Shown one piece after another: positions 1-4,763 of a stretch of 4,763 bases of DNA; position 1 is the first letter of the stretch; every line of letters begins with the position of its first letter. The stretch comes from a virus. Its lineage: Duplodnaviria > Heunggongvirae > Uroviricota > Caudoviricetes. The translations under genes and the position numbers were made by a program. The DNA lies in the IMG/VR virus record IMGVR_UViG_2609459844_000002, positions 1-4,763 of that record; one strand, given 5' to 3'. A model generated the notes under the pieces. It had not been told where the DNA came from and searched no databases. It worked only from the letters and a program-made list of their open reading frames with translations.

Positions 1-55
1 GAGCAATTGCCTTCTAAGCAATCGGTCACTGGTTCGAATCCAGTACAACGCGCCA
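1..55 (+). tRNA. tRNA-Arg (anticodon UCU), 3' portion; 5' end lies outside the window
   Basis: Foldable by eye: anticodon stem 6-10/18-22 (ATTGC/GCAAT), 7-nt loop CTTCTAA with anticodon TCT at 13-15, U33 and A37 present; 5-nt variable loop; T-arm ACTGG-TTCGAAT-CCAGT (28-44); acceptor 3' strand 45-51, discriminator G52, CCA 53-55. Lambdoid and Stx phages carry rare-codon Arg tRNAs (argN/argO type) downstream of Q. Confidence 0.7.
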
Positions 56-69
56 CACTTATTTTCCCT

Positions 70-96
70 GGCTCGCTTTTGCGGGCCTTTTTTTTT
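70..96 (+). terminator. Rho-independent terminator downstream of the tRNA
   Basis: Stem GGCTCGC (70-76), loop TTTT, stem GCGGGCC (81-87) with one G-U pair, followed by a run of nine T (88-96). Confidence 0.55.
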
Positions 97-293
97 AAAT
101 GTCTCACAATTCAGACGGTTGACTGTTGTCTGGTTTGCGGGGAGTTTGTTAAAAGAAACTGGCATGGTGAATCCCCCTGTGCGGAGGGGCAATCAGCGAG
201 TAGGTATATGGGATAATCGCGGATTCAGGTGCTGGTACTGAATTCACCGGGAGGCACCCGGCACCATGCAATGGCACATAGCGCCACTCTCCA

Positions 294-320
294 GCCCCTC
301 TCCGGAGGGGCTTTCTTGTG
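294..320 (+). terminator. Putative rho-independent terminator
   Basis: Perfect 7-bp stem GCCCCTC (294-300) / GAGGGGC (305-311), loop TCCG, followed by the T-rich stretch TTTCTTGTG. Confidence 0.45.
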
Positions 321-323
321 GGC

Positions 324-352
324 AAAAAAAGCCCGCGCTGGGAGACGCGGGC
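324..352 (-). terminator. Putative rho-independent terminator for leftward transcription
   Basis: Perfect 7-bp stem GCCCGCG (331-337) / CGCGGGC (346-352) with an 8-nt loop, preceded on the + strand by A7 (324-330), which is a U7 tail on the - strand transcript. Confidence 0.4.
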
Positions 353-449
353 GGCAAGGAATAAACAATAAAACGTGAAGTAATATTTCAGCTGGCGAAT
401 AATACCCCATAGTAATCACTCTGCGCAACTGCGCGGTCTTTTTCGAATT

Positions 450-504
450 GCGGGCTGTCGTCTCTCTTCTGCCATTGTCCTGTAACTTCCGGACTTCAGC
501 CCGC
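450..504 (+). repeat. Perfect 8-bp inverted repeat (GCGGGCTG ... CAGCCCGC) with a 39-nt spacer, in the leader of the esterase gene
   Basis: Read directly: 450-457 is the reverse complement of 497-504. Lies about 40 nt upstream of the start at 546. Function unknown (leader stem-loop or protein-binding site). Confidence 0.5.
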
Positions 505-545
505 TCCTCATTTTACTCACAATATTATCCCGGCCGGGAGGATTC

Positions 546-1481
546 ATGGCATTTAAACACTATGATGTTGTCAGGGCGGCGTCGCCGTCAGACCTTGCGG
601 AAAAGCTGACACACAAACTGAAAGAGGGCTGGCAGCCATATGGCGGACCGGTTGCCATTACGCCGTACACACTGATGCAGGCGGTGGCTATTGAAGGAGA
701 TCCACAGGTCGGCCCTTCATCTGAGCCGGACTGGTTCTACGTGGTTGTGCTTGCCGGACAGTCCAACGGCATGGCCTACGGTGAAGGGCTTCCGTTACCG
801 GATTCTTACGATGCTCCGGATCCGCGCATTAAACAGCTGGCGCGCCGCAGCACGGTAACTCCGGGTGGAGAGAGTTGTACGTATAACGACATCATCCCGG
901 CTGACCACTGTCTGCATGATGTGCAGGATATGAGTACGCTGAATCATCCGAAGGCAGACCTGAGCAAAGGGCAGTACGGCTGTGTCGGCCAGGGCTTACA
1001 TATTGCCAAAAAACTGCTTCCGTATATCCCGAATAACGCGGGGATCCTGCTGGTACCATGCTGTCGTGGTGGTTCGGCATTCACCCAGGGCGCGGAGGGG
1101 ACATTCAGTGCGGACACGGGGGCCAGCCAGGATTCGGCACGCTGGGGTGTGGGTAAACCGTTATATCAGGACCTGATCGCACGCACCAAAGCGGCATTAC
1201 AGAAGAACCCGAAAAATGTGTTGCTGGCGGTGTGCTGGATGCAGGGAGAGTTTGACATGAGCGCCGCCACCTACGCACAGCAACCTGCGCTGTTTACAGC
1301 CATGCTGAAGCAGTTTCGTGCTGACCTCACTGTGTTTAACGCGCAGTGTCATGGTGGCAGTGCTGTAAATGTGCCGTGGATTTGTGGTGACACGACGTAT
1401 TACTGGAAAAATACATACGCTATTGCTGTGTCTCCGATGCTGTATGGGCTGGCAAAACTGGTCATTGCGCTGAAATCGTGA
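546..1481 (+). CDS. DUF1737-domain / SGNH-type (sialate O-acetylesterase-like, NanS-p-like) protein, 311 aa, possibly a short or truncated form
   Basis: Strong SD GGGAGGA 4 nt before the ATG. N-terminus (MAFKHYDVV...KEGWQPYGGPV) has the pattern typical of DUF1737. The LAGQSNGMAYGEG motif is the GQSN nucleophile block of the SASA/SGNH esterase family. The position, downstream of phage tRNAs and upstream of the lysis genes, is where lambdoid/Stx phages carry nanS-p paralogs. Confidence 0.8.
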   Translation: MAFKHYDVVRAASPSDLAEKLTHKLKEGWQPYGGPVAITPYTLMQAVAIEGDPQVGPSSEPDWFYVVVLAGQSNGMAYGEGLPLPDSYDAPDPRIKQLARRSTVTPGGESCTYNDIIPADHCLHDVQDMSTLNHPKADLSKGQYGCVGQGLHIAKKLLPYIPNNAGILLVPCCRGGSAFTQGAEGTFSADTGASQDSARWGVGKPLYQDLIARTKAALQKNPKNVLLAVCWMQGEFDMSAATYAQQPALFTAMLKQFRADLTVFNAQCHGGSAVNVPWICGDTTYYWKNTYAIAVSPMLYGLAKLVIALKS

Positions 1482-1580
1482 ACTTTAAAAAGATGAGTGC
1501 TGAACTTATTCGGGCAATGGCATTTGCCATTCGTATTGTGGCCATTGCTGTTCTGGTCTGGACAATCCGTTGGTGGTGAT

Positions 1581-2048
1581 ATGAACCGTGTTCTGTGTGT
1601 GGTGATTATTGTCCTGCTGGTAGCCTGTGGTGTGCTTAGTCTGGGGCTGAATCATTACCGTGATAACGCCATTACCTACAAAGCCCAGCGCGACAAAAAT
1701 GTCAGAGAACTGAAGCTGGCGAACGCGGCAATTACTGACATGCAGATGCGTCAGCGTGATGTTGCTGCGCTCGATGCAAAATACACGAAGGAGTTAGCTG
1801 ATGCGAAAGCTGAAAATGATGCTCTTCGTCGCAAGCTTGATAATGGTGGCAGGGTGCTCGTCAAAGGAAAATGCCCTGTGCCATCCTCAGCCGAAACCTC
1901 CAGCGCCTCCGGCATGGGCAATGATGCCACCGTCGAACTCTCTCCAGTTGCTGGACGAAACGTTCTCGGTATCCGGGACGGAATTATCCGCGACCAAACA
2001 GCACTGAGAACGCTTCAGGAATACATCAGGACGCAATGCCTTCGATGA
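1581..2048 (+). CDS. Rz: Rz i-spanin (inner-membrane spanin subunit)
   Basis: N-terminal TM segment followed by [59 protein letters not shown], near-identical to lambda Rz as I recall it. I place the start at ATG 1581 (the track's GTG at 1497 is upstream in frame) because it aligns with the lambda Rz N-terminus and is preceded by a GGTGG SD-like sequence. Confidence 0.9.
1801..2007 (+). CDS. Rz1: Rz1 o-spanin (outer-membrane lipoprotein), embedded in the +1 frame of Rz
   Basis: Wholly inside Rz in a different frame. Signal peptide plus lipobox (LIMVAGC), then the proline-rich stretch [19 protein letters not shown] 8 nt upstream. N-terminus MRKLKMML resembles lambda Rz1 (MLKLKMML). Confidence 0.85.
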
Positions 2049-2222
2049 TAGCGATAATTTTACTCATCATCCTTCACATCTGGCTCTGTAGACAGGGTGG
2101 TGATCACTTCTGGAGTGAATCCAGATTTAACATCTCATTGCTGATGCTTGATATTGAGCATCTTGCGCGCGGTAAGGGGCTGCGTTGAGATAAGAGCCAG
2201 TCATCACAAACACCAGGATTTA

Positions 2223-2248
2223 GCCTCGCATTCGCGGGGCTTTTTATT
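2223..2248 (+). terminator. Rho-independent terminator downstream of Rz/Rz1
   Basis: Stem GCCTCGC (2223-2229), loop ATTC, stem GCGGGGC (2234-2240) with one G-U pair, followed by TTTTTATT. Confidence 0.5.
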
Positions 2249-2266
2249 GCAACAAAGGTAAAGACG

Positions 2267-2554
2267 ATGGATGAAGAATATCGTAAAGACCTGCAATTGT
2301 GGTTTGGCCTGACGCATGCGTCGTTCTGCGTGATGCCGAGAGTATTCATGGAGGCTATGCCGCAAGAATGGCAAGAGAAGATGGCGCAGTTGCTTTTTGA
2401 GTATGGCGACACGATCAAAACGGATGTCTGCGGAGTTCACTGCTGTTTCGTTACTGCCAAAGACGGCAACAACCGCTTTATGAGGATGCCAGAAGATATT
2501 CTGAACTATCGTCATCCCCGGCGTGAGTTCATCGAATCATTTCTGAAGAAGTAG
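2267..2554 (+). CDS. Hypothetical protein, 95 aa
   Basis: ORF with E. coli-like codon usage (CTG, CCG, GCG, ACG common) and balanced charged/hydrophobic composition; weak SD (AAGG) about 8 nt upstream; begins just after the terminator at 2223-2248. No family recognised. Confidence 0.55.
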   Translation: MDEEYRKDLQLWFGLTHASFCVMPRVFMEAMPQEWQEKMAQLLFEYGDTIKTDVCGVHCCFVTAKDGNNRFMRMPEDILNYRHPRREFIESFLKK

Positions 2555-2647
2555 CCATTACAAAGTCTATCTGCGGGGGGCTTGATAAAGGTGCTTTCAC
2601 CTCGCTTAGCATGGTATGTTCTGACTACCAACTTTTTGGGAGGACAC

Positions 2648-2872
2648 ATGGAACTGATAAATGGACGGCCAGGCAGAGATTTTATAGTGGGAACATATAC
2701 CTACTCAGAAATTAAAGATCTTAACTTCATGGCTAAGGAAGAGAAAAGAGCTCGTGAAGAGCTAAAGCATCGGGGTTACGAATTGGCGTATATCAAGGCG
2801 GACTCTGAATGTAACGGGATGTTTGTCAGGGCGTACCGGGTCTATACTGACAAAGCGCCATCTAATGTCTAA
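2648..2872 (+). CDS. Hypothetical small protein, 74 aa
   Basis: ATG at 2648 preceded by GGGAGGA (2638-2644). The track's TTG start at 2582 is in frame but has no SD, so I prefer 2648. AT-rich relative to the flanking phage genes; a T6 run follows the stop. No family recognised. Confidence 0.5.
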   Translation: MELINGRPGRDFIVGTYTYSEIKDLNFMAKEEKRAREELKHRGYELAYIKADSECNGMFVRAYRVYTDKAPSNV

Positions 2873-2938
2873 ATATACCTCGGGCGGTTTTTTACGTTCA
2901 TTACCGTACGCAATTACAGCAGGCATTCATTGAGTGCC

Positions 2939-2947
2939 TGTGATAAT
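2939..2947 (+). promoter_or_regulatory. Candidate extended -10 promoter element (TGTGATAAT) for the 134-aa ORF
   Basis: TG at 2939-2940 plus GATAAT at 2942-2947 (5/6 match to TATAAT), about 60 nt upstream of the GTG at 3008. No good -35 element, which is compatible with an extended -10 promoter. Prediction by eye only. Confidence 0.3.
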
Positions 2948-3007
2948 GATTTATCAACGTGCTTGCAAACGGTATTCTAGACCTCCAATTATCCTAAGGA
3001 GGTTTTT

Positions 3008-3412
3008 GTGGTTAAAAATTTAGAATACATGAAGGGGATGCTTGAGGTATTTTTGAAAGCGAAAACTCCCTTTATATCTACAAAAGACTTAGCTAATGCG
3101 GGGTACGATATCTGCTCGAATGAAGGGATGTTTCATTATCTACTTCTTATTGAGCAAGGTTATATCAGTAATAAAGATCTAATAACGGATGACATAACTA
3201 AACTGGGCTACATGCGCCATTGTGGCCATATGCTAGATATGGGTACCGACGTGCGACTATCTGCGCAGGGACAAGAATTCGCCCAGGCATTAAATGAACC
3301 TACGGTTTTTGAGAAATTAAAGTCAATGAGCGATGCCCCTTTGAGTACAATCAAAGATGTTGGGCTGGAGTTAACGAAGGCCTATTTAAAGAAGAAATTT
3401 GGCCTCGAGTAA
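3008..3412 (+). CDS. Hypothetical protein, 134 aa, in AT-rich moron; possibly DUF2513-like
   Basis: Canonical SD AAGGAGG (2996-3002) 5 nt before GTG 3008 (an alternative ATG lies 21 nt downstream in frame). Coding segment is visibly AT-rich compared with the flanking phage genes. The N-terminal pattern and the GYDI...HYLLLIEQGYI motif resemble my recollection of DUF2513 phage proteins; unverified. Confidence 0.6.
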   Translation: MVKNLEYMKGMLEVFLKAKTPFISTKDLANAGYDICSNEGMFHYLLLIEQGYISNKDLITDDITKLGYMRHCGHMLDMGTDVRLSAQGQEFAQALNEPTVFEKLKSMSDAPLSTIKDVGLELTKAYLKKKFGLE

Positions 3413-3624
3413 AATTTCTACCCTCACGAGTTAAGTTGTTTTGTGATGGTTATTCGCAATGAATATCTTTAGCCACTGGCATTTGCTGGTGGTTTTTTTA
3501 TGCGCATCCCTCGCGCACCACAAAGGGAGTCTTTCAGTAGTGATTCTGAATATCAGTGTGATAAACGTATTTGATAATCATTATCATTTTTGGTGGGTCC
3601 TTTCCGGCGATCCGACAGGTTACG

Positions 3625-3636
3625 GGGCGGCGACCT
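3625..3636 (+). other. cosN: lambda-type 12-nt cohesive-end sequence GGGCGGCGACCT
   Basis: Exact lambda cohesive-end sequence, preceded by the lambda right-end sequence ...GATCCGACAGGTTACG and followed by lambda left-end sequence running into the Nu1 start. The cos region overall (cosQ side, cosN, cosB) spans about 3560-3800. Confidence 0.8.
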
Positions 3637-3732
3637 CGCGGGTTTTCGCTATTTATGAAAATTTTCCGGTTTAAGGCGTTTCCGTTCTTCTTCGTCATAA
3701 CTTAATGTTTTTATTTAAAATACCCTCTGAAA

Positions 3733-3789
3733 AGAAAGGAAACGACAGGTGCTGAAAACGGGCTTTTTGGCCTCTGTCGTTTCCTTTCT
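3733..3789 (+). repeat. cosB region: perfect 16-bp inverted repeat (AGAAAGGAAACGACAG / CTGTCGTTTCCTTTCT) flanking a 25-bp spacer; probable Nu1-binding R elements with an intervening IHF site
   Basis: Inverted repeat read directly (3733-3748 and 3774-3789). Position between cosN and the Nu1 start matches lambda cosB, where oppositely oriented R sites flank the I1 IHF site. Confidence 0.6.
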
Positions 3790-3813
3790 CTGTTTTTGTC
3801 CGTGGAATGAACA

Positions 3814-4227
3814 ATGGAAGTCAACAAAAAGCAGCTGGCTGACATTTTCGGCGCGAGTATCCGTACCATTCAGAACTGGCAGGATTTGCCCGTAATCAAG
3901 CTGGGTAACGCGCGGGTTGTCCTTTCCCGCCGCAGACGTCGTAAAAAGGGGCAGCGTTCATCCCTGAAAGGTGGCGGCAGCGTGCTTGTGGTGGGAAACC
4001 GTCGTATTCCCGGCGCGTTTATTCAGCAACTGAAAAATGGCCGGTGGCATGTCATGCAGCGTGTGGCCGGGAAAAACCGTTACCCCATTGATGTGGTGAA
4101 AATCCCGATGGCGGTGCCGCTTACCACGGCGTTTAAACAGAATATTGAACGGATACGGCGTGAACGTCTTCCGAAAGAGCTGGGCTATGCGCTGCAGCAT
4201 CAACTGAGAATGGTAATAAAGCGATGA
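3814..4227 (+). CDS. Deletion-fusion ORF: Nu1 N-terminus (23 codons) joined in frame to the C-terminal ~114 codons of tail protein Z
   Basis: MEVNKKQLADIFGASIRTIQNWQ is the lambda Nu1 N-terminus; DNA similarity to lambda Nu1 stops at about 3884. The rest (DLPVIKLGNARVVLSRRRRRKKGQRS...LRMVIKR) matches my recollection of the lambda gpZ C-terminus and ends in the ATGA stop/start overlap with U, as Z/U do in lambda. Probably a non-functional remnant. Confidence 0.75.
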   Translation: MEVNKKQLADIFGASIRTIQNWQDLPVIKLGNARVVLSRRRRRKKGQRSSLKGGGSVLVVGNRRIPGAFIQQLKNGRWHVMQRVAGKNRYPIDVVKIPMAVPLTTAFKQNIERIRRERLPKELGYALQHQLRMVIKR

Positions 4228-4619
4228 AACATACTGAACTCCGTGCAGCCGTACTGGATGCACTGGAGAAGCATGACACCGGGGCGACGCTTTTTGATGG
4301 TCGCCCCGCTGTTTTTGATGAGGCGGATTTTCCGGCAATTGCCGTTTATCTCACCGGCGCTGAATACACGGGCGAAGAGCTGGACAGTGATACCTGGCAG
4401 GCGGAGCTGCATATTGAAGTTTTCCTGCCTGCTCAGGTGCCGGATTCAGAGCTGGATTCGTGGATGGAGTCCCGGATTTATCCGGTGATGAGCGATGTCC
4501 CGGCACTGTCAGATTTGATCACCAGTATGGTGGCCAGCGGCTATGACTACCGGCGCGACGATGATGCGGGCCTGTGGAGTTCTGCCGATCTGACTTATGT
4601 CATTACCTATGAAATGTGA
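4224..4619 (+). CDS. U: Tail tube terminator protein U
   Basis: 131 aa, near-identical to lambda gpU as I recall it ([22 protein letters not shown]...LTYVITYEM). Same length and same position between Z and V. Confidence 0.93.
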
Positions 4620-4626
4620 GGACGAT

Positions 4627-4763
4627 ATGCCTGTACCAAATCCAGCAATACCGGTGAAAGGTGCCGGAACCACCCTGTGGGTTTATAACGGGAGCGGCGA
4701 CCCTTATGCGAACCCGCTTTCAGACGTTGACTGGTCGCGTCTGGCTAAAGTTAAAGACCTGAC
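4627..4763 (+). CDS. V: Major tail protein V, N-terminal 45 codons; continues beyond the window
   Basis: [45 protein letters not shown] matches the lambda gpV N-terminus; GAGGA SD 5 nt upstream; 7-nt gap after U as in lambda. Confidence 0.92.

Follow-up and report, generated by a model that had tools for sequence, protein, structure and literature searches.

Introduction

In lambdoid and HK97-like phages, the moron was reportedly defined by Juhala et al. in 2000 as an element carrying its own promoter, with bor and lom of lambda as instances. The interval from Rz to cos is a known moron site. Here we analyse a 4,763-nucleotide (nt) stretch of DNA from a virus of the Caudoviricetes (IMG/VR record IMGVR_UViG_2609459844_000002, positions 1–4,763; hereafter the window), in which two small accessory genes, orf74 and orf134, lie within that interval, each preceded by a copy (hairpin A and hairpin B, respectively) of a ~41-nt element that we call the junction hairpin. 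Like morons, orf74 and orf134 are each a single accessory gene between core late genes, present or absent between conserved neighbours, with deviant base composition, a downstream intrinsic (factor-independent) terminator, and a sporadic distribution. Unlike for morons, no convincing σ70 promoter was found for them, and the upstream signal is a conserved, covarying hairpin; in addition, the two cassettes stand in tandem, with no simple empty site, and encode proteins unrelated to Bor or Lom.

The RNase III processing hairpins of phages T7 and T3 and the repetitive extragenic palindromic (REP) elements of Escherichia coli are repeated RNA hairpins located between cistrons or after stop codons. 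The junction hairpin resembles both in being, as RNA, a sense hairpin of ~19–20 bp with an internal loop, located between cistrons or abutting a stop codon, but it has no sequence similarity to either and is confined to one accessory region rather than being genome-wide. Integron attC sites have conserved outer inverted boxes, a variable middle, unpaired bases, and a strand bias, with one site per cassette. The junction hairpin likewise has outer boxes, a variable complementary middle, unpaired bases, and a strand bias, and occurs once per cassette in arrays, but it is much shorter than attC, has no associated integrase, and lies 5′ of the cassette gene, with terminators at the 3′ edge.

In T4-type phages, promoter-early stem-loops (PeSLs) are conserved motifs bordering small, non-essential open reading frames (ORFs) in hyperplastic regions and are shown to act as common homology for modular shuffling (Arbiol et al. 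2010, PMC2839356; see also Comeau et al. 2014, PMC4122927). Like PeSLs, the junction hairpin is a short, conserved stem-loop motif repeated at the borders of small accessory ORFs. PeSLs are strong σ70 promoters combined with terminator stem-loops in virulent myoviruses, whereas the junction hairpin has no −35 element and no U-tract, contains a 2 × 2 internal loop, and belongs to temperate enterobacterial phages, where it occupies the late region. A comparative signature of the kind expected of PeSL-type cassettes, homology breakpoints at the edges of the element, is seen here. The junction hairpin appears undescribed, neither its core sequence nor a description of it having been found in a literature search, and is best seen as akin to repeated regulatory motifs flanking accessory ORFs, such as PeSLs. 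The two genes themselves fall into established categories, being moron cargo and belonging to DUF2513 and PHROG families.

Results

Separate assortment of orf74 and orf134

We consider it probable that orf74 and orf134 belong to two independent, stacked, single-gene accessory cassettes with RNA-acting junction hairpins, located in the Rz-to-cos region of a defective lambdoid prophage. The cassettes share a common build, comprising a ~41-nt hairpin, a 55–60-nt leader with a Shine-Dalgarno site, one gene, and an intrinsic terminator (Table 1).

Loci encoding homologues of either protein (designated by L-numbers) were gathered from assemblies and IMG/VR, and both proteins were searched against 55 loci with tblastn. 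The two genes occur together only where both are 99–100% identical to the window. Homologues of orf134 at 96, 87, 83, 65, and 47–55% identity are all without orf74, and homologues of orf74 at 83, 82, and 70% identity are all without orf134. DNA homology to other phages extends over either 2553/2556–2894 (L012, L008, and L054) or 2913–3501 (L006, L030, and L031), never both, with a clean break between the end of the orf74 cassette (cassette A) at 2894 and the start of the orf134 cassette (cassette B) at 2913. The gene downstream of orf74 homologues encodes DUF6694 or DUF6953/DUF2158, while the gene upstream of orf134 homologues encodes a spanin or DUF2560. The homologue loci always lie between lysis and terminase genes, the terminases being of lambda, P2-GpA, P27/HNH, and Terminase_2 types.

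These comparisons indicate that orf74 and orf134 are two single-gene cassettes that are recent neighbours, not a two-gene unit, and that Orf74 and Orf134 do not need each other. A preliminary description of the segment had treated the genes as a pair and asked whether they travel as a unit; with every diverged homologue single, a homology break at 2894/2913, and co-occurrence confined to ≥99% identity, that part of it does not hold. Because diverged homologues of each gene are always single, a toxin–antitoxin or obligate two-component system is disfavoured and, as judged from these loci, unlikely.

The full reading of that kind, one two-gene moron with an operator and one or more σ70 promoters of its own, expressed while the prophage is repressed and encoding a functional pair (toxin–antitoxin, defence, or exclusion), can draw on the AT-richness of the segment, on an inter-gene terminator that is eroded in this lineage, so that the genes are probably co-transcribed here, and on the block 2555–3546, which has spread undivided, with ≥99% identity kept, so that it follows at least four different upstream sequences among E. 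coli prophages (L001, L016, L028, and L029). We nevertheless regard it as improbable. The co-occurrence table already weakens it, and in relatives a separate hairpin head and a separate terminator accompany each gene. In addition, orf74, orf134, orf95, and orf50 give no PADLOC match (PADLOC-DB 2.0, E ≤ 1), the candidate operator palindrome does not exceed chance expectation and lacks conservation, the scan detects no −35/−10 promoter, and both proteins lack the hydrophobic segment that is usual in membrane exclusion proteins.

The block is present in 35 of 5426 complete E. coli genomes, as against ~1500–4600 for its flanks (orf95, ~1550 records; cos-proximal sequence, ~4600), and orf95 is thus context, outside the mobile block. 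A chimeric query in which orf95 directly adjoins the cos region found no spanning alignment in any of the 5426 genomes, and the insertion site is, on these alignments, a multi-allelic variable region with no simple filled or empty site. The view of the segment as horizontally acquired, moron-type DNA in a variable Rz-to-cos region is thereby upheld, the segment being both sporadic and AT-rich.

The 18-bp spacer at 2895–2912 (+ strand), CGTTCATTACCGTACGCA, holds CATTAC, similar to the left box of the hairpin, and may be the scar of an earlier junction. In NZ_CP095798.1 (E. coli CT282), identity is 100% over window positions 2555–3012 only, with a second match elsewhere in the record. This match takes in hairpin B and the leader as well as the orf74 cassette and ends at the start of orf134, implying that orf134 is interrupted there or that another cargo gene follows the hairpin.

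Structure and covariation of the junction hairpin

The junction hairpin comprises an outer stem GCAUUA/UAAUGC, a 2 × 2 symmetric internal loop in which 5′ CA faces 3′ GA (in 32 of 36 distinct variants), a 10-bp inner stem, and a 3-nt loop. The inner stem varies in sequence yet stays complementary, as in GCAGGCAUUC/GAGUGCCUGU, GGAGCCAUUC/GAGUGGCUUC, GAAGCUCUUC/GAGGAGCUUC, and AAGCCCA/UGGGCUU. Across the 36 distinct 41-mers, whose divergent variants are extra copies found in the same loci, 94.1% of cells are paired, a value inflated both by the seeding of the set with an exact 20-mer and by the derivation of the structure from the same sequences, as compared to 35–47% when the partner column is slid. 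Nine of the 17 pairs have changed on both sides, giving 62 doubly changed cells, and the observed covariation is reached in 0 of 500 shuffles. Read on the + (gene-sense) strand, the non-Watson-Crick cells include 85 G-U pairs, as against 12 when the − strand is read. Since this asymmetry is invisible to double-stranded DNA, it implies a constraint on a sense-strand single-stranded molecule, and the sequences point to mRNA as the simplest case.

Both copies in the window are recognized by covariance model R1. In particular, hairpin B is matched at 2905–2955 with 63.6 bits (E = 1.6e-15) on the + strand, as against 32.1 bits on the − strand, and has an RNAfold energy of −17.2 kcal/mol. Hairpin A, which begins at the final base of the orf95 stop codon, is matched at 2549–2597 with 17.4 bits (E = 0.18 in the window) and has an RNAfold energy of −9.3 kcal/mol; its two C-to-U changes keep U-G pairing where L012 has C-G, and copies orthologous to it upstream of orf74 homologues (L008–L012) score 29–31 bits (E ~1e-5). 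A search of 2500–3600 with Rfam (4227 covariance models) gave no match at E ≤ 1, the Rfam matches in the window (STnc100, a tRNA, and three chance-level matches) all being elsewhere.

The main rival to an RNA role is a promoter role. It takes the hairpin for a DNA signal, namely a portable extended −10 promoter, TGnGATAAT, under a dyad operator bound by a dimeric regulator, with autonomous morons transcribed in the lysogen. Classical morons are said to have their own promoter. The GAnAAT box (A at −11, T at −7) is present in nearly all variants, with TGn ahead of it in the main class, the element lies 27–60 nt upstream of start codons, and PeSLs of T4-type phages join a promoter to a stem-loop (PMC2839356). 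The extended −10 element TGTGATAAT picked out in the preliminary description is indeed present at 2939–2947, with TG in front of GATAAT, but it proves to be the 3′ strand of the conserved, covarying hairpin. The free change of the inner-stem sequence with complementarity kept is unlike an operator of one regulator, and the excess of G-T pairs on the sense strand would not register in double-stranded DNA. There is, moreover, no −35 element, the −10 box lies 21–25 bp from the conserved left box, CTGTAAT variants lack A at −11, and the element often begins 0–2 nt past a stop codon. A promoter role in place of an RNA role thus seems doubtful.

Distribution, cargo, and breakpoints of the junction hairpin

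The 36–42-bp stretch with which the orf134 cassette begins on its left (2913) also matches unrelated sites in E. coli genomes and phages, and the 20-nt core of the hairpin is found in more than 119 IMG/VR contigs. Counting with a strict, orientation-specific pattern gave, among the matches listed, 179 instances in 135 loci of enterobacterial phages. In 77 of 151 cases in that set the hairpin starts 0–2 nt past the stop codon of an upstream ORF that runs in the same direction, and the median distance from its end to the next start codon with a Shine-Dalgarno site is 58 nt. The 79 distinct downstream proteins fall into 38 unrelated clusters, including DUF2560, DUF2513, a HolE/theta-like protein, a BamE-like lipoprotein, a Lar-like restriction-alleviation match, DUF551, HNH endonucleases, small terminase subunits, and many PHROGs of unknown function. 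The hairpin also occurs in mEp390, P22-like phage HF4s, phi80, and Klebsiella and Pectobacterium phages. In some loci, arrays of three to four same-strand hairpins are spaced ~195–350 bp apart, with one small ORF between neighbours (Table 1). By comparison, a 25-kb stretch of the related E. coli O104:H4 prophage has two copies only, A and B.

In the prophage of E. coli M505, a gene annotated in RefSeq with an Acb2/Tad1 domain (L058, 1624–1917; lysis-to-terminase region) lies two genes upstream of a canonical hairpin. Acb2/Tad1 is an anti-CBASS/anti-Thoeris sponge family, and the hairpin-punctuated region thus carries known anti-defence cargo in relatives.

Homology breakpoints coincide with the edges of the element. 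They fall at 2553–2556, 2588, and 2913: homology to L012, L008, L016, L028, and L029 begins at 2553–2556, homology to phage HF4s ends at 2588, and 2913, at hairpin B, is where L006 and L030 become homologous. The 3′ breakpoints lie just past terminator T-runs, at 2894 and 3501. In L031 (3909–3931, aligned with window 2913–2930), the left arm of the hairpin is swapped for unrelated sequence directly after a terminator, which places the breakpoint (2923) inside the hairpin, just before the loop.

Breakpoints at hairpin edges, and inside the hairpin in L031, are also what a single-stranded DNA (ssDNA) recombination site similar to integron attC would give, with a recombinase inserting and excising cassettes. 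The conserved outer boxes, two unpaired positions, variable complementary inner stem, and strand bias fit such a site, as do the arrays with each hairpin flanking one small ORF. The loci examined have no dedicated recombinase alongside the element, however, and the 41-nt hairpin is shorter than attC sites, the 3′ breakpoints lie at terminators rather than at a second hairpin, and the same pattern would be expected if 40-bp shared stretches recombined by ordinary homologous recombination. We therefore consider an attC-like site very unlikely.

Expression signals other than the hairpin

A consensus scan of the + strand over 2555–3010 detected no −35/−10 promoter, so the proposal that the segment carries expression signals of its own gains no support from the scan. 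The palindrome AGGTG-CTTT-CACCT, put forward as an operator, fares no better: a 5-bp inverted repeat with a 3–8-nt loop is expected 0.49 times by chance in 2555–2647 (P = 0.33, shuffles), and the palindrome is absent from the L012 and L008 leaders and deleted in L054. These sequence features, like the others listed in the preliminary description, are all present where it placed them; it is their interpretation that has changed.

Each cassette ends in a terminator or its remnant. For orf74, the intact terminator GCCGCCTCCGGGCGGTTTTTT is present at the aligned position in L012 and L054, homology to both of which stops at 2894; in the window, the terminator scan makes no call at 2873–2893, and the eroded state makes co-transcription of orf74 and orf134 probable here. 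The orf134 terminator is kept in L030, L006, and L031, with homology to L006 and L031 stopping at 3501.

The 121-nt leader of orf134 has a folding z-score of −3.3. A predicted stem at 2979–3005 that sequesters the Shine-Dalgarno site appears in both the minimum-free-energy and the centroid folds, is retained in L030, L006, and L031 through C-to-U changes opposite G, and is broken in L002; the predicted fold suggests translational control of orf134.

Other candidate signals were set aside. An upstream ORF from the ATG inside TAATG (2946) does not keep its frame or length in other copies. The sequence TGTGATAATGATTTATCA matches a Fur box over one half only, and that part is not kept in other copies; as a CRP site it is missing its second half, and as a LexA or P2-Ogr dyad it has the wrong orientation.

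Proteins encoded by orf74 and orf134

Both ORFs are genuine genes under purifying selection, as judged from ratios of nonsynonymous to synonymous substitution (dN/dS) of 0.11–0.19 for orf74 and 0.075–0.14 for orf134 (against homologues with dS of 0.2–1.4), from start codons and Shine-Dalgarno sites kept in diverged homologues, and from full-length PHROG matches. The earlier view of both as real genes with strong Shine-Dalgarno sites is thus borne out (dN/dS 0.08–0.19 overall).

Orf74 matches PHROG 6100 over positions 1–74 of 74 (E = 1e-55), which favours the start at ATG 2648 over TTG 2582; the 96-amino-acid TTG-start version was dropped, its upstream part diverging with insertions and deletions and the PHROG model having 74 amino acids. 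The protein is hydrophilic, with no hydrophobic segment (grand average of hydropathy, GRAVY, −0.73), and is predicted to adopt a small alpha/beta fold, beta-beta-alpha-beta-beta (AlphaFold2; predicted local distance difference test, pLDDT, 78). A Foldseek search of the model against the PDB gave no significant neighbour (best E = 0.2); dodecin, MinE, and archease, which came up in that search, were rejected as relatives, the resemblance being that of a generic small alpha/beta fold and not homology. The gene has no Pfam, NCBIfam, or PADLOC match. A word-indexed protein search returned five relatives, and tblastn against isolated phages returned 0 records.

Orf134 matches PHROG 585 over its full length (E = 3e-31). 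By itself it gives no direct Pfam, NCBIfam, or PADLOC match and no PF10711 match at E ≤ 0.1; the word-indexed search returned 12 relatives, and tblastn against isolated phages returned three records. A profile, A1, was built from 11 close relatives and searched against a representative library of 1.84 billion proteins, and 218 proteins were retrieved at E ≤ 1e-3 across the whole library, nearly all of them single-domain proteins of 125–150 amino acids. PF10711 (DUF2513) is matched by 51 of 68 sampled members of the family (best E = 3e-14). The AlphaFold model of Orf134 (pLDDT 88.5) has a winged helix followed by C-terminal helices, and the near-invariant residues H43, G67, R83, G88, and F91 lie within or beside helix 3 (the recognition helix) and the wing.

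On the strength of the transitive profile search and the winged-helix fold, Orf134 is assigned to DUF2513 (PF10711) as a divergent member, the family itself being functionally uncharacterised. The DUF2513 winged helix is of the MarR/PadR/Sso10a/TubR structural class; Orf134 departs from the family in falling below every Pfam threshold and in being acidic. Searches of PDB sequences with profiles A1 and A2 gave chance-level matches only, with no solved DUF2513 structure found, and a literature search on DUF2513/PF10711 gave no functional account, the name appearing only in unrelated work. Orf134 has no hydrophobic segment (GRAVY −0.17). The model suggests that it most likely binds nucleic acid and is probably dimeric. 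The profile searches and structure predictions called for at the outset thus place orf134 in a winged-helix family and orf74 in PHROG 6100 with an alpha/beta fold; the statement that the pair belongs to no characterised family and is not bor-like stands as regards function and Bor, but not as regards family membership of orf134.

The gene order, with a small protein ahead of a winged-helix one, also recalls an acr-aca-type anti-defence operon, in which orf74 would encode a small inhibitor of host defence and orf134 a helix-turn-helix autorepressor. Homologues of orf134 lie beside different small genes in other phages, the same region of E. coli M505 carries the Acb2/Tad1-domain gene, and a Lar-like match is among the hairpin cargo. 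Against such an operon, orf134 homologues often directly follow a spanin or DUF2560 gene, with their own hairpin, leader, and terminator, and between orf74 and orf134 there is a terminator, or what is left of one. No known Aca family is matched in Pfam or NCBIfam, and PHROG 6100 has no known inhibitor activity. This makes the acr-aca reading unlikely.

Setting in a defective lambdoid prophage

Window bases 1421–3734 match a prophage of E. coli O104:H4 2011C-3493 at 98.8% identity, while the whole window is found in none of the complete E. coli genomes of the collection. The alignment identifies the window as part of an E. coli lambdoid prophage and this copy as defective, since, relative to the intact O104:H4 prophage, it has lost the holin and endolysin genes and the genes from terminase through tail gene Z. 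Specifically, homology to the O104:H4 esterase gene (1854 bp, as against a 311-amino-acid ORF in the window) stops at ~1399, and homology to the DNA immediately 5′ of Rz begins at 1421; this junction implies deletion of holin and endolysin, and hence a prophage unable to lyse its host. In the fusion ORF at the other side of cos, residues 1–31 are the Nu1 N-terminus and residues 21–137 match positions 74–190 of minor tail protein Z, implying deletion of the terminase-to-head-tail-joining genes and making DNA packaging by the prophage impossible.

The segment has Rz/Rz1 on its left and a lambda-type cos on its right, in agreement with its earlier placement between lysis genes and cos. The 12-nt sequence GGGCGGCGACCT we take to be the cohesive ends of lambda, and a homologous cos-region layout is annotated in phi80. 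The GC content of 2555–3412 is 41.8%, as compared to 51.9% (546–2554) and 54.0% (3814–4763) in the flanks, and GC content at third codon positions is 0.45 for orf74 and 0.43 for orf134, as compared to 0.51–0.60 in neighbouring genes; the reported AT-richness is thus confirmed by calculation (41.8% against 52–54% GC). Its reported extent, ~2580–3420, is AT-rich as described but too narrow: the AT-rich zone is the full Rz-to-Nu1 interval (2049–3813, 43.3% GC), wider than the two ORFs, and no 858-bp window entirely outside 2036–3813 has less than 50.9% GC.

The STnc100 match has the prophage tRNA cluster on one side and the nanS-like esterase gene on the other. Where the window has its cut tRNA gene, the O104:H4 prophage has a cluster of tRNA-Ile/Arg/Arg genes, which follows a DNA methyltransferase gene. 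The 50-amino-acid ORF that overlaps the end of Rz has a hydrophobic N-terminus and is annotated in O104:H4 as a hypothetical protein.

Table 1. Features of the window, and hairpin arrays in other loci
Feature	Coordinates	Strand	Basis or remark
Hairpin A, degenerate copy, 5′ edge of orf74 cassette, GCCATTACA-AAGTCT...GGGGCTT-GATAAAGG	2554–2592	+	
Palindrome in orf74 leader, AGGTG-CTTT-CACCT	2589–2602	+	judged chance feature of leader
Shine-Dalgarno site of orf74, GGGAGGA	2637–2643	+	GGGAGG or GGAGG in 4/4 aligned homologues
orf74, 74-amino-acid soluble protein, PHROG 6100	2648–2872 (ATG)	+	PHROG match, dN/dS
Eroded intrinsic terminator of orf74 cassette, ATATACCTCGGGCGGTTTTTT, left arm of stem lost	2873–2893	+	
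Hairpin B, canonical copy, 5′ edge of orf134 cassette	2910–2950	+	covariance model R1, RNAfold
Predicted 8-bp leader stem, AGACCUCC paired with GGAGGUUU, sequestering AAGGAGG	2979–3005	+	
Shine-Dalgarno site of orf134, AAGGAGG	2996–3002	+	kept in diverged homologues
orf134, divergent DUF2513 winged-helix protein, PHROG 585, isoelectric point (pI) 5.9	3008–3412 (GTG)	+	profile search, fold
Intrinsic terminator of orf134 cassette, 10-bp stem and T-run, 3′ edge of cassette	3471–3501	+	scan (3471–3494)
tRNA gene, 3′ part, cut at window edge	1–52	+	Rfam tRNA, 38 bits
STnc100 small RNA (RF02076, gammaproteobacterial), full-length match	133–323	+	Rfam, 139 bits, E = 8.5e-32
nanS-like DUF1737+SASA esterase gene, 311 amino acids	546–1481		Pfam
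Rz, with Rz1 embedded	1581–2048		Pfam Phage_lysis, E = 1e-31
50-amino-acid ORF overlapping Rz end	2036–2188	+	PHROG 11822, full length, E = 1e-37
Terminator 5′ of orf95	2222–2241	+	terminator scan
orf95, accessory ORF, 95 amino acids	2267–2554	+	matches C-terminal part of PHROG 3527
cosQ-like stretch and 12-nt cohesive-end sequence GGGCGGCGACCT (3625–3636)	3595–3636	+	read from sequence; right-hand landmark of variable region
Nu1(1–31)::gpZ fusion ORF, gpU next	3814–4227	+	Pfam
Hairpin arrays in other loci	L129 2996–4029; L079 6633–7326; L117 46–2489; L115 8695–9408		three or four copies per array, ~310–350 bp apart

Discussion

A constraint on the hairpin as sense RNA requires that transcripts enter it from upstream, and we infer that the cassettes would be transcribed in the sense direction by such transcripts. 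In lambda, the Q-modified late transcript from pR′ reads through terminators. By analogy, the transcript in the intact phage would be the Q-antiterminated late transcript from pR′, reading through the intervening terminators. In the RNA, the hairpin may serve as an intercistronic punctuation element, acting in processing, 3′-end stabilisation, or translational control, with the orf134 Shine-Dalgarno site additionally masked by the leader stem. In the DNA, ~40 bp present at many junctions could provide short common homology for cassette swapping, as with PeSLs. Orf134 would act alone in a late or accessory function, and Orf74, as a small soluble protein, would have an unrelated function.

Several observations weigh against independent cassettes with RNA-acting hairpins. 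In the 35 E. coli genomes holding the whole segment, both cassettes always travel as one block, and a recently acquired functional link between them within E. coli is possible. The fraction of paired positions is raised by the way in which the hairpin set was seeded and folded, and perfect-palindrome variants could reflect template-switch correction instead of selection. In almost every variant, the 3′ strand of the hairpin retains the −10-like GAnAAT (A at −11, T at −7), often preceded by TGn; a promoter role for this box is possible on sequence grounds and could coexist with an RNA role. The phi80 hairpin lies just after rha, with the next gene on the opposite strand, and the element is thus not always a gene leader. 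Finally, the pI of 5.9 and rather hydrophobic helix 3 of Orf134 are atypical of a DNA-binding winged helix.

A broader reading, which we put forward only tentatively, as a possibility, is that the hairpin represents an undescribed, widespread class of phage element, acting as sense RNA or possibly as ssDNA, that punctuates the lysis-to-packaging accessory region and would be the physical handle through which single-gene morons are expressed and pass among otherwise unrelated phages. The phages concerned would include lambda-like, phi80, P22-like, and HK97-like types, some with P2-type terminases, and the element would be a temperate-phage counterpart of the PeSLs of T4, or even an attC-like cassette site.

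The genes alone are ordinary prophage dark matter, and the hairpin is the part that could matter. With orf74 and orf134 shown to be separate cassettes, an attractive but mistaken lead towards a toxin–antitoxin or defence system is closed. How morons are acquired and move among mosaic phages has been a long-standing question since the term was coined. The hairpin stands at cassette borders before at least 38 unrelated gene families, in phages with several packaging and virion modules. It provides a testable handle on the expression of accessory genes, through RNA processing, stability, or translation, and on cassette shuffling, whether by shared micro-homology or by a dedicated mechanism, and it could be used for automatic delimiting of accessory and anti-defence cargo in prophage annotation.

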